DNA from: Escherichia coli
GTDB lineage: Bacteria; Pseudomonadota; Gammaproteobacteria; Enterobacterales; Enterobacteriaceae
Length of the DNA: 64,000 bases
Direction: 5' to 3' (one strand)
Assembly (NCBI RefSeq): GCF_003334355.1
Contig: NZ_QOWP01000005.1
Part shown: one piece after another, positions 1 to 28,265 of the stretch
Position numbering within the stretch: position 1 is the stretch's first letter
Layout: every line of letters begins with the position of its first letter
Program-made: the position numbers and the translations under genes
Notes under the pieces: generated by a model
What the model was told of the DNA's origin: nothing
Databases searched by the model: none
The model's input: the letters and a program-made list of their open reading frames with translations, nothing else

Positions 1-843
1 ATAGCTGTGGATGCTGATCATCAACACGACCGCCCAGAGCAGCGAAATCAGCTTATAACCATAGCGCATCGCTCCCCACATCATCAGGGGCAGCAATAAT
101 GACAAGGTATAATTGGTGCTAAAAATTGTGCTTTTTTCATTTAACGGCATGCATAACAGCAACAATAAAGCACCTAATGCCAGTAGCCAGAGCGCGAACT
201 CTTTTTTGGTGACTTTGGCATCAACCTGCTGTTTTAATTGCGAATAATAGCTACGTAAATAAAATGGATTTCGCACTACCCGAATGATGAAGTAGCACAG
301 CGGGACACCGATCAGATTACCCACCAGTAAGGCCTGATAATTGATTAAAGTCCCGAGGTTAAAAGGCATGACACCGACCAGATTTTCTCTGCTCGCCAGT
401 AATCCTACAAATGCAGCAAACTGGAAAAGTATCAGAAACAGCGTTGCAGGAAACACAATCTGCCAGAATATACGCTGGGAAATTAAACGGGTATCACCAT
501 GTGAAACGTTGTTACGCCGGGGAGTAAAGACCCTGTAACCGCCCCAACAGAGAATGATAATGATAATAAAATTAGCCGTTAATGATAGCGTTTCGTAAAA
601 ACCCAGCTCTGCATATTTGCGGACAAAAATCCCTAAGGCGATCCCTGGCAATGCCGCCCAGCTGAAAAACATCATCATGCTGATCATCAGTGCCAGAGGC
701 AGATAAAAGAGAAAAACCTCACCGGAAGAAATATGCGCGAAAGTATTAATGTGGGCGAAAATGGGCAAGATTAAAGAAGGCAGGAACAGCGGAAGCCCCC
801 ACCATTTATCACGTATTTTTATATAAGTTGCATTCAGTTTCAT
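1..843 (-). CDS. pdeF: c-di-GMP phosphodiesterase PdeF (YfgF), N-terminal membrane (MASE1) part only; gene continues past window start
   Basis: ATG at 843..841, open frame to position 1 (281 codons); translation MKLNATYIKIRDKWWGLPLFLP... strongly hydrophobic; absent from ORF track because no stop lies in the window. Confidence 0.8.
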   Translation of the reverse strand, partial: MKLNATYIKIRDKWWGLPLFLPSLILPIFAHINTFAHISSGEVFLFYLPLALMISMMMFFSWAALPGIALGIFVRKYAELGFYETLSLTANFIIIIILCWGGYRVFTPRRNNVSHGDTRLISQRIFWQIVFPATLFLILFQFAAFVGLLASRENLVGVMPFNLGTLINYQALLVGNLIGVPLCYFIIRVVRNPFYLRSYYSQLKQQVDAKVTKKEFALWLLALGALLLLLCMPLNEKSTIFSTNYTLSLLLPLMMWGAMRYGYKLISLLWAVVLMISIHSY

Positions 844-25397: not shown

Positions 25398-25587
25398 GCA
25401 AAAGAGAGTAATTATTGTTTATTTAGCGTATTATCGACACCGGCCCTTTCCGCCGTGTTCGGTAATAAAATAACCTGGCTTATTAGTCCGAATTCAGACA
25501 AATATAAACAAATCCTGCTCAAAATTAAAAATTCTAACCGGTAAAAGATATTACTTAAACATGTAAATTCACTTTCCTTTAAAAAAC

Positions 25588-25616
25588 AAAAAACCGCCAA
25601 AATCAGGCGGTTTTTT
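25588..25616. terminator. bidirectional intrinsic terminator (second copy)
   Basis: AAAAAACCGCCAAAATCAGGCGGTTTTTT. Confidence 0.75.
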
Positions 25617-25684
25617 GTTGCTGGTCCGGTTCGCGGCCTTTCCAGCAGGTTGTATTACCGTAGTAATGCAAGCGCGTCTCAGCG
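25588..25684 (-). ncRNA. candidate ~100-nt sRNA, copy 2 (TimR-like antitoxin candidate), divergent from the ryfA-like transcript
   Basis: minus-strand TTGACA-N17-GAGTAT promoter (25691..25719), terminator at 25588..25616; contains GGAAAGGCCGC. Confidence 0.4.
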
Positions 25685-25690
25685 GAGACA

Positions 25691-25719
25691 ATACTCGCCA
25701 GTAACTCTCTTTTTGTCAA
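25691..25719 (-). promoter_or_regulatory. putative sigma70 promoter for sRNA copy 2
   Basis: TTGACA (25714..25719 complement), 17-bp spacer, GAGTAT (25691..25696 complement). Confidence 0.35.
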
Positions 25720-25808
25720 GCAAAAGAGAGTTATTATTGTTCTGTTAGTGTATTATCCACTGCGGCCCTTTCCGCCGTCTCGCAAACGGGCGCTGGCTTT
25801 AGGAAAGG

Positions 25809-25883
25809 ATGTTCCGTGGCCGTAAATGCAGGTGTTTCACAGCGCTTGCTATCGCGGCAATATCGCCAGTGGTGCTGTCGTGA
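25809..25883 (+). CDS. small ORF 1, 24 aa (MFRGRKCRCFTALAIAAISPVVLS), hypothetical membrane peptide
   Basis: AGGAAAGG directly upstream of ATG; hydrophobic; below ORF-track size cutoff; an upstream CCCTTTCC could sequester the SD. Confidence 0.3.
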   Translation: MFRGRKCRCFTALAIAAISPVVLS

Positions 25884-25907
25884 TGCGGTCTTCGCATGGA
25901 CCGCACA

Positions 25908-26033
25908 ATGAAGATACGGTGCTTTTGTATCGTACTTATTGTTTCTGGTGCGCTGTTAACCGAGGTAAATAATAACCGGAGTCTCTCCGGCGATAATTTA
26001 CTGGTGGTTAACAACCTTCAGAGCAGCAAGTAA
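25908..26033 (+). CDS. small ORF 2, 41 aa (MKIRCFCIVLIVSGALLTEVNNNRSLSGDNLLVVNNLQSSK), candidate type I toxin-like peptide
   Basis: same frame as ORF 1, separated by a TGA and 4 codons; alternative ATG at 25896 gives 45 aa; about 15-residue hydrophobic N-terminal segment; no strong SD. Confidence 0.4.
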   Translation: MKIRCFCIVLIVSGALLTEVNNNRSLSGDNLLVVNNLQSSK

Positions 26034-26063
26034 GCCCGAATGCCGCCCTTTGGGCGGCATATT

Positions 26064-26840
26064 TTAGATTATCCGATTCTGTTTAAAGTCACGCAAAAAA
26101 CCACCCCAGCGACGTTCATAGAATGGCGCAATATGTTCGGTAATAAAGTGGCTAATTCCTTTTTCCCCTTTTTTCACCTGACAAATATCGATTGGTTCAT
26201 CGCCAGGTAATGTATCGGTCGCTACACTTCCCGTCGCCTGAATAATTTCTTCGATATCACCATCGGCTTCAATGCCAATAAGTAAATTAGGCTGTGCCTC
26301 TTCGTTCTCTTTAATTGAACAAATAAAAGCACGCTTCACCGGCTTAATGGTTTTAAATAAGGTGGTGAGTGAATCAATCATTTGTGCTGGCGGCTCTGCG
26401 ACTTCCGATAATATCAGCGATTCACCGCCTTCCAGGATTTCCTGGCTGCTCAGCGGATTTCCCTCTTCACCAATCAACAAACTGATTTCACGCGGCATAA
26501 ATTCTTTACCGGTTGGCAGTTTGGCATTAAGGAAGAGCGTTTCGCCAAGTGTCATCTCAAACAGCGTGCGAACGGGCATTACGACAAATGCCTGTTCGTC
26601 TTCAACCGCCTGTTGAAGTGCTTCTAACGAGGTGAAAAAAGGAATGACGCTGGTGCCGTCTTCTTTTTCCCAGTGCTGTAAATCAAGCGCGCTATCTTCA
26701 ACCACAGCCTCGCCCTGCGCCGCCGTACCAGGCACCCAGACGGTGGATTCCAGTAGAGTACGGAAAAAGGCCGGGCGGTGCGCCGGTTCAGTTGCTGCTT
26801 TTTCCAGCAGGTCTTCAAGTTCGTTTTTTGTTTCGGACAT
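26064..26840 (-). CDS. sseB: SseB (enhanced serine sensitivity protein)
   Basis: ORF track frame; ATG at 26840 (MSETKNELEDLLEKAATEPAHRPAFF...); ORF-track start at 26849 is a GTG 3 codons upstream. Confidence 0.88.
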   Translation of the reverse strand: MSETKNELEDLLEKAATEPAHRPAFFRTLLESTVWVPGTAAQGEAVVEDSALDLQHWEKEDGTSVIPFFTSLEALQQAVEDEQAFVVMPVRTLFEMTLGETLFLNAKLPTGKEFMPREISLLIGEEGNPLSSQEILEGGESLILSEVAEPPAQMIDSLTTLFKTIKPVKRAFICSIKENEEAQPNLLIGIEADGDIEEIIQATGSVATDTLPGDEPIDICQVKKGEKGISHFITEHIAPFYERRWGGFLRDFKQNRII

Positions 26841-26876: not shown

Positions 26877-26973
<97 letters not shown>

Positions 26974-26981
26974 ATATTAGT

Positions 26982-28265
26982 TTACGCCGTTAACAGATTA
27001 GCTATCGTGCGCACACCAAGTCCCGTAGCGCCCGCAGACCACTGTTCAACCGGCGCTTTACGGTAAGTCGCCGAGCAGTCGATATGCAGCCAGCCTTGCT
27101 GATAGTTCTCAACAAAGTGCGACAGGAAGCCCGCCGCCGTGCTCGCGCCTGCCGGATACGCCGCGCTTCCGGTATTGTTCAGTTCGGCAAAGTTAGACGG
27201 CAGCTGGCTGCGGTGGAACTCCGCCAGCGGCAGACGCCAGAACGGTTCGTTCTCCTGCGCGGCACTCGCCAGCAAGCGACCGGCCAGCGCATCGTCAAAA
27301 CTGAACAGCGCGTGATAATCATTACCCAGCGCAGTTTTCGCCGCCCCGGTGAGGGTCGCCGCATCAATGATCATTTCCGGTTTCTGCGCACTGGCATCAA
27401 TCAGACCATCGGCAAGCACCAGACGCCCTTCGGCATCAGTGTTCATCACTTCAACTTTTTTACCGTTGCGATAGGTGATGATATCGCCCAGCTTGAACGC
27501 ATTGCCGCTAATCAGGTTATCCGCACAGCAGAGGAACAGCTTCACGCGCTTGTTCAGTCCGCGCGTAATGGCAAATGCCAGCGCCCCGGTAACCGTTGCC
27601 GCGCCGCCCATGTCCGACTTCATCGAGTCCATAAACGCAGTCTGTTTGATGCTGTAGCCGCCGGAGTCAAAAGTGATACCTTTACCTACCAGGCACGCGT
27701 ACACTGGCGCTTCTTTATCGCCAGTTGGGTTGCAATCCAGCGCCAGCAATACCGGAGAACGTTCTGAACCGCGTCCGACGGTGTGCAGCCCCATATAACC
27801 TTGCTCACGCAGATCTTCGCCTTTGGTGATCCGATAAGTCACACGATCGCCCGCGACGTTGCTGATCAGATCAACAGCACGCTGTGCCAGTTGCGATGGT
27901 CCCAATTCTTCTGCCGGTGCGTTGATGGTGTCACGCACCCAGTCGATGATCATCAGGCGGTTATCCAGTTCCTGGCGCTGGGCATCGTCCAGATCCGGCC
28001 ACTCCACTTTACGCGTGCCTTTCGGGGCTTTGTAACCTTGCCAGAATGCCCAGCAGCGATCCGCATCCCAACCTTCACCGCTTAACTGAACATGCTTGAT
28101 GCCCAGACCGTCAATCTTGCGGGCCGCACGCTGGATCAGCCCCAGATCGTCTGCCCCGTTCAAATGCAGGGTAATGCCATCATTATTAATGCTGTAAGTT
28201 GCTTTTTCTCCCCAGCGCGCGTCGGCAGGTTGGGTAGAGAGGGTAATTTTCATCGCTTCTGTCAT
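26982..28265 (-). CDS. pepB: aminopeptidase B (peptidase M17 family)
   Basis: ORF track 427 aa, [30 protein letters not shown]... Confidence 0.95.

Follow-up and report, generated by a model that had tools for sequence, protein, structure and literature searches.

In Escherichia coli, an 11-nucleotide complementarity between TimR and the timP leader is real in sequence but most likely not regulatory

The bases under study lie in a 64-kb stretch of E. coli DNA, called here the window at its full length, with the local gene order yfhM-sseA-[timR/timP]-sseB-pepB. An Rfam scan matched the ryfA family (RF00126) over its full length (model 1-296) at 25762-26065 on the plus strand, with 314.2 bits (E = 8.6e-88) for a gathering score of 80, and an NCBIfam scan matched the TimP family (NF040796) at 25908-26030, with 86.8 bits for a cut-off of 45. 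The timP coding sequence is annotated by RefSeq at identical loci, and a terminator-like hairpin at 26040-26060 stands at the 3' end of the timP mRNA. The bases flagged in a preliminary description of this DNA are part of the 5' leader of that mRNA, which encodes the toxin of the type I toxin-antitoxin system timPR, so that the general suggestion of type I antitoxin control was borne out. The system has been described earlier (Andresen 2020, PMC7667032; Eleftheraki & Holmqvist 2024, PMC11228461; Eleftheraki 2026, PMC13000454), bears the names RyfA/RyfB in Shigella (Fris 2017, PMC5333039), and its timP mRNA was formerly taken for an sRNA, RyfA. The locus, the SL1 hairpin and the true target of TimR are all already known and carry little weight as a discovery. 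The toxicity of TimP and its translational repression by TimR have been demonstrated in Salmonella only; studies of ryfA in E. coli reported RNA-level phenotypes, and the peptide was not detected. Further downstream, in the sseB-pepB gap, REP-like palindromes (26898-26987) gave sub-threshold Rfam matches to naRNA4 and ES036. The coordinates of the features are presented in Table 1.

Table 1. Features of the timPR locus in the window, with the evidence on which each one rests or a remark.
Feature	Coordinates	Strand	Evidence or remark
TimR-A, distal copy adjoining sseA, with the same core motif at 25307-25317	25263..25361	-	Better match to the timP leader
Truncated second copy of the timP promoter and first ~16 leader bases	25442..25621	+	Direct repeat D1, Rfam IS128
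TimR-B, copy adjoining timP (the sRNA of the preliminary description)	25589..25682	-	5' end inferred by homology to Salmonella TimR +1
"sRNA core" GGAAAGGCCGC of the preliminary description, in TimR-B	25633..25643	-	Top of hairpin 2 stem and loop
timP mRNA (= ryfA RNA)	25764..26065	+	Rfam RF00126 and Salmonella +1; annotated/Rfam start 25762
SL1 lower stem, 5' strand, CCCUUUCC region, leader +4..+10 ("leader segment" of the preliminary description)	25767..25773	+	Rfam consensus, minimum-energy fold, covariation
SL1 lower stem, 3' strand GGAAAGG, leader +39..+45 ("Shine-Dalgarno of ORF 1")	25802..25808	+	Rfam consensus, minimum-energy fold, covariation
ORF 1 of the preliminary description, 24 codons, AUG at leader +46	25809..25883	+	Not conserved
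Second upstream ORF, 31 codons from a GUG at leader +53	25816..25911	+	Start homologous to that of the published Salmonella uORF
Canonical TimR-binding site in SL2, leader +62..+80	25825..25843	+	Direct repeats, hybrid energy, covariation, Salmonella validation
SL4, hairpin sequestering the timP Shine-Dalgarno (GGA 25898-25900)	25885..25904	+	Minimum-energy fold
timP CDS, toxic inner-membrane protein of 41 aa	25908..26033	+	RefSeq annotation, NF040796

The numbering of the leader follows that of Salmonella. Since the Salmonella timP ORF occupies +145..+261 and the authors' in vitro transcription primer gives a T7 template that begins GGCCCTTTCC, the Salmonella +1 is the first G of GGCCCUUUCC. 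The timP AUG stands at +145 in both E. coli and Salmonella, and positions -2..+92 of the leader could be aligned without a gap across all of the 11 modules compared (see below); the E. coli +1 was therefore placed by homology at 25764, against 25762 in the K-12 annotation of ryfA and in Rfam. Bases 25762-25763 may thus lie outside the transcript. All four stem-loops, SL1 to SL4, were present in the minimum-energy fold of the window leader. The positions in SL4 matched the Salmonella numbering one-to-one (for instance G125/C138 and the loop base G131), and reading the sequence alone, the bases at the published site positions G33/C34, C57-G59, G102/C103 and G125/C138 were identical or equivalent.

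Upstream of timP, we observed two copies of a divergent sRNA gene of about 95-100 nt, each with an intrinsic terminator and a 5' end complementary to SL2 (the 5' end of Salmonella TimR was taken from the published primer). The distal copy, TimR-A, forms a continuous duplex with the SL2 site at -32.8 to -35.9 kcal/mol, and TimR-B, adjacent to timP, forms one with two mismatches and three G-U pairs at -24.8 to -29.1 kcal/mol. E. whittamii and E. coli LF82 have a leader type that the TimR-B seed matches perfectly, with both in a single module; a search of the window for another target of this seed returned nothing but its own gene. The two-copy layout was found, at 80% or more of the query, in 4758 of the 5426 complete E. 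coli genomes (about 88%). The sRNA gene beside timP is then not the best match to SL2 in the majority of complete E. coli genomes, a point that bears on the design and interpretation of "timR" deletions. In S. dysenteriae, RyfB1 lowered RyfA1 and not RyfA2, which is 95% identical, and this indicates that small differences in the SL2 site confer specificity. Rfam matches of the timR copies to the rimP leader, ohsC, AgrB, OrzO-P and RNAI were discarded, as their scores were below gathering and came mostly from the terminator hairpin.

The two copies belong to two direct-repeat units, each made of a terminator, a timR body, a divergent promoter region and ~16 bases from the start of the leader; the repeat D1 (25366-25456 and 25688-25778) is 90% identical between the units. 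The unit next to sseA has no leader and runs into IS128 (RF00125), matched by Rfam at 25422-25630 on the plus strand with 262 bits. IS128 opens with the second copy of the timP promoter and about 16 leader bases (GGCCCTTTCCGCCGT), continues with AT-rich divergent sequence, and its 3' end is a hairpin shared with the TimR-B terminator. By its sequence, IS128 appears to be what is left of a second timP gene.

A consensus fold of 16 TimR sequences comprised a single-stranded 5' seed, hairpin 1, hairpin 2 and the terminator. Hairpin 2 has the stem GCUGG/CCAGC, which shows a single compensatory change, and a loop of 17 nt, AAAGGCCGCGAACCGGA. This loop was invariant in 13 of the 16 sequences and is the most conserved part of TimR. 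The sRNA motif of the preliminary description, GGAAAGGCCGC on the minus strand at 25643-25633 (GCGGCCTTTCC on the plus strand), with a second copy at 25307-25317, consists of the top two G's of this stem and the 5' half of this loop.

For comparison, timPR modules were gathered from 80 sseB loci of other Enterobacteriaceae and from contigs encoding TimP homologues. A protein search with E. coli TimP reached Escherichia and Shigella only, a profile reached Salmonella and Citrobacter, and three small proteins, more distant still, came from a HMMER scan of representatives. The covariation alignment comprised 11 modules, each as a gap-free concatenate of the 5' end and motif region of TimR with leader positions -2..+92. 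It spans Escherichia, Salmonella, Citrobacter, Superficieibacter and three further loci; homologues described in the literature for Serratia, Rahnella and Hafnia were not recovered. A "TimP" match in S. bongori (L084), directly after sseA and with no recognisable leader, was left out.

Several loci of this collection were rearranged. Recurrent deletions fuse the timR body to the timP leader at the canonical 19-nt repeat, with loss of both promoters and of SL1, in C. amalonaticus (L016), S. arizonae (L020), E. marmotae (L092/L093) and one C. farmeri (L090); the E. marmotae fusion is also without the timR terminator, and timP is still annotated there. At L095 (contig DAXQHA010000014.1), all parts of a divergent timPR module are present outside sseA-sseB, near hha-like and umuC/IMS-family genes and with a 20/20 match of TimR seed and leader, which suggests that the timPR module may be able to move. 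Among the proteins annotated as TimP, a 38-aa entry from E. coli (P0068, nr) joins the TimP N-terminus MKIRCFCIVLIVSGALLTEV to the C-terminus RQYRQWCCRDAVFAWTAQ of the 31-codon upstream ORF, which would imply a rearranged or duplicated locus in some strain.

The preliminary description had proposed that the 5' segment of the leader folds back onto the Shine-Dalgarno-like run AGGAAAGG at 25801-25808, as an anti-Shine-Dalgarno for ORF 1. The fold-back itself was confirmed: both the Rfam consensus structure and the minimum-energy folds, RNA folding having been suggested as a check, pair CCUUUCC (25767-25773) with GGAAAGG (25802-25808). In the published model of the timP leader, with its four stem-loops, this helix is the SL1 lower stem (PMC11228461). 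In the 11-module alignment, its 7 pairs were paired in 97.4% of cells and 2 of them were compensated (C-G to U-A and U-A to C-G), and the divergent locus L095 carries a further, independent change of C9-G40 to U-A. In Salmonella, mutants M7 and M7' make a full swap of these 7+7 nt, from CCUUUCC to GGAGAGG and from GGAGAGG to CCUUUCC (PMC11228461, supplement). M7 alone nearly abolished translation and M7+M7' fully restored it (PMC11228461). Since a strand swap that turns GGAGAGG into CCUUUCC restores translation, it is the helix that matters and not the Shine-Dalgarno-like sequence.

The anti-Shine-Dalgarno role given to this fold-back presupposes a functional ORF 1. The ATG at 25809 follows directly after AGGAAAGG with no spacer, and a different start, the GUG at 25816, lies 7 nt downstream of the run. 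When ORF 1 was scored at fixed positions in 14 modules (L095 was left out for a 1-nt insertion in SL1), its AUG was absent from 5, S. enterica among them, which reads AUA; in E. whittamii, ORF 1 has 5 codons only. The fold-back is therefore better described as the SL1 lower stem. The GUG of the second upstream ORF aligns with the Salmonella uORF AUG at +53..55. In the window, the UGA stop of this 31-codon ORF overlaps the timP AUG (AUGA), a classic coupling layout. It is polymorphic: of 15 modules, 9 have all 31 codons, two (S. enterica and Citrobacter MGH106) have only 8, and E. whittamii and E. coli LF82 lack the start. Neither upstream ORF matched an NCBIfam protein family. The non-conservation of the upstream ORF had already been remarked by the Salmonella authors, and the change of AUG53-55 to AAG left timP translation unaffected in Salmonella (PMC11228461). 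A conserved upstream ORF with a Shine-Dalgarno at a functional distance, of the hok/mok kind, was not found here.

The site at which TimR is known to act lies elsewhere in the leader, about 60 nt downstream of the flagged bases. The SL2 segment 25825-25843 is a direct repeat of 25344-25362 (17/19 identical) and of 25665-25683 (14/19). Over the 11 modules, the intermolecular helix between TimR and SL2 counted 19 pairs, 11 of them with compensatory changes, and 95% of cells were paired; these values were reached by 0 of 500 shuffles. Its sequence is hypervariable, and the two sides co-evolve module by module; in L095, the timR gene and the leader are identical at 20/20 bases of the site. The compensatory M6 mutants of Salmonella validated an uninterrupted 18-nt pairing of the leader with the 5' end of TimR; this duplex sits in SL2 (PMC11228461). 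The validated target of TimR is thus this SL2 site, with 11 of 19 pairs co-varying, and not the 5' segment of the leader, to which the preliminary description had assigned it.

As for the 11-nt complementarity itself, the strings are where they were said to be: the leader carries GCGGCCCTTTCC at 25762-25773, its single occurrence in the window, and the duplex of 11 bp with one bulge has an energy of -17.5 kcal/mol for the bare motif and -20.8 kcal/mol with its flanks. With +1 at 25764, 2 of the 11 pairs would fall upstream of the transcript, and the remainder, 9 bp with the bulge, has -15.0 kcal/mol. When the sRNA body was shuffled by dinucleotides, a bulged helix of 11 bp appeared in 1.7% of cases and an energy at least as good in 6.7%; for the 9-bp version these fractions rose to 18% and 47%. 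The complementarity as such stood, and its length and rarity were weakened by the probable position of +1 and by these shuffles.

None of the 11 pairs of this patch was changed on both sides in the 11 modules, and all covariation measures were identical to those of shuffles. The terminal pair was present in only 3 of 11 modules, and nine pairs were retained in 10 of 11. The missing covariation is weak negative evidence, both partners being strongly conserved. Every change on the TimR side weakens the pairing: an A to G change in S. diarizonae and in Citrobacter MGH106, and GGGUAGG in L095. In S. diarizonae, GGGAAGG on the TimR side faces the leader CCACCUCC with two A-C mismatches; the patch of Citrobacter MGH106 has two G-U pairs, and that of L095 one U-U mismatch and two G-U pairs. 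In contrast, the changes on the leader side were compensated within SL1.

We evaluated the energetics with windowed duplexes and exact opening energies, as RNAduplex on whole molecules gave uninformative full-length duplexes. Opening costs 6.7-9.0 kcal/mol at the TimR motif and 6.7-7.6 kcal/mol at the 5' strand of the leader. The net energy of the patch was between -1.5 and +0.5 kcal/mol for 9 bp and between -4.2 and -6.5 kcal/mol for 11 bp, compared to about -13 kcal/mol at the canonical site. In the dimer ensemble, the probability that leader nucleotides 4-10 pair with TimR did not exceed 0.09 for the window and was 0.00 for S. enterica. The predicted TimR-leader dimers of both formed the canonical duplex and retained the SL1 lower stem at 0.90-1.00. 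Duplex prediction, the other computational check that had been suggested, thus left the 9-bp patch near zero net energy once opening was paid for, and unpopulated in the ensemble. Neither compensatory changes nor a net energy favourable against the intramolecular structure was observed. In Salmonella, the TimR-induced probing changes were located in SL2, with minor ones at 57-58, 142-144 and ~165, and not at the base of SL1 (PMC11228461), and TimR-M6, changed only in its 5' seed and with the patch intact, gave no rescue and was called binding-incompetent.

These results bear directly on the switch of the preliminary description, in which the sRNA core would pair with the 5' segment of the leader and free, or compete with, the ORF 1 Shine-Dalgarno AGGAAAGG, the translation of ORF 1 controlling the toxin. 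Its two ingredients, the complementarity and the fold-back, both exist, and coupling to an upstream ORF is known in type I systems (hok/mok, cited in PMC11228461). However, the patch is thermodynamically uncompetitive and without covariation, ORF 1 is neither properly spaced from its Shine-Dalgarno nor conserved, and the published strand swap, uORF start mutation and probing already contradict such a switch for Salmonella. A competition between sRNA and Shine-Dalgarno for the leader segment found no support in covariation, energetics, or published mutational or probing data. The proposed switch is not supported, and we consider it extremely improbable.

A weaker role for the same bases would be an auxiliary contact, in which TimR, once tethered at SL2, touches the 5' end of the leader, or a GGCC-type site 1 or site 2, with the loop of hairpin 2, and so helps to dismantle SL1 and the pseudoknot or locks the inactive form. 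The near-invariance of the hairpin 2 loop is the main reason why we do not wholly dismiss a secondary role of the patch. The retention of nine patch pairs in nearly all modules points the same way. The patch is also co-linear with the canonical duplex, and one suboptimal duplex joins both blocks. The Salmonella authors leave open how TimR at SL2 destabilises the SL1-SL3 pseudoknot, and site 2 was reported to be protected upon TimR binding. Some predicted dimers showed alternative pairings of the loop with the site 1 or site 2 regions, but these were inconsistent between species. With no compensatory change, a loss of pairing at each TimR-side change, a low predicted occupancy and no reported probing change at the base of SL1, such a contact appears very unlikely. 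Another pairing, of the TimR loop GGCCGCGAAC with the leader GUUCCGUGGCC at 25811-25822 (10 bp with a bulge), which overlaps site 2, was rejected for lack of conservation, being confined to this leader type of E. coli; the E. coli representative in the alignment has GACC at the stretch complementary to GGCCGCGAAC.

It is likewise very unlikely that the near-invariant 17-nt loop serves as a second functional contact surface or as a seed for other targets. If true, the first of these roles would explain how TimR at SL2 dismantles the SL1-SL3 pseudoknot; the second would agree with a reported deleterious effect, in avian pathogenic E. coli, of TimR on its own when RyfA is absent.

The patch could also be a relic. 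On this reading, timR would be an antisense-transcribed partial copy of the timP leader, and the patch one functionless co-linear block of that copy. The plus strand of the timR region and the leader do share GCGGCC(C)TTTCC followed by the 19-nt canonical block, in the same order and orientation, and the repeats are recombinogenic, as the timR-leader fusions at the canonical block in several independent lineages indicate. Outside the canonical block, however, the gapped alignment of timR (plus strand) with the leader was no better than shuffles in 4 of 5 species, where the fraction of shuffles at least as good was 0.11-0.25, compared to 0.01 in Superficieibacter. Without a function, moreover, one would expect the TimR side of the block to vary from genus to genus. 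We regard this origin as unlikely.

Taken together, these results argue with high probability for a known timPR system in which the flagged bases form the lower helix of SL1, TimR acts at SL2 and the patch is not regulatory. Identity, structures, covariation and energetics were computed here, and the mechanism of translation control comes from published Salmonella experiments. As every landmark position maps one-to-one, we infer that this mechanism would be transferable to E. coli. SL1 would act as a scaffold, with 25767-25773 and 25802-25808 as its lower helix, and its upper part would form with SL3 a pseudoknot required for translation of the toxin at 25908. The inactive form of the leader would correspond to the pairing of site 1 with site 2, and the pseudoknot to that of sites 1 and 3; a contact between site 2 and site 4, also required, would open SL4, which sequesters the Shine-Dalgarno. 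Repression would follow from pairing of the single-stranded 5' end of TimR with SL2 at 25825-25843, the 5' end of the leader not being a target. The patch would then join two independently conserved motifs, its leader side locked in an intramolecular helix that out-competes it. The complementarity of the hairpin 2 loop in TimR to the start of the leader is real in sequence and is most likely not a regulatory interaction.

Compared to known systems, the locus shares with timPR of Salmonella, E. coli and Shigella its place between sseA and sseB, its RNA family and its toxin family, a leader predicted to fold into four stem-loops, with every landmark equally far from +1, and a divergent, terminator-ended sRNA with a 5' end complementary to SL2. 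Unlike the published timPR, the window contains a pair of TimR paralogues and, in IS128, a second leader that is truncated, and the adjacent TimR-B fits SL2 less well than the distal TimR-A. The homologous uORF has 31 codons here and ends on the timP AUG, whereas that of Salmonella has 8 codons.

With hok/mok/sok and CopA/tap/repA, timPR has in common a structured toxin or target leader, a hairpin that masks the Shine-Dalgarno, antisense binding at a long distance upstream of the RBS under control, and an upstream ORF with a stop overlapping the downstream start. It differs from them in that the upstream ORFs are not conserved here, and in Salmonella the uORF is dispensable, the mRNA is unprocessed and the antisense RNA is not aimed at the RBS of the uORF. 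With tisB/istR-1, zorO/orzO, shoB/ohsC and dinQ/agrB, it shares a divergent, non-overlapping antitoxin gene and a short (~18-20 nt) leader complementarity far from the RBS, and the timR copies gave weak Rfam matches, all below gathering scores, to the ohsC, AgrB and OrzO models. In contrast to these four systems, timP needs no ribonucleolytic processing; as for tisB, its translation depends on a pseudoknot.
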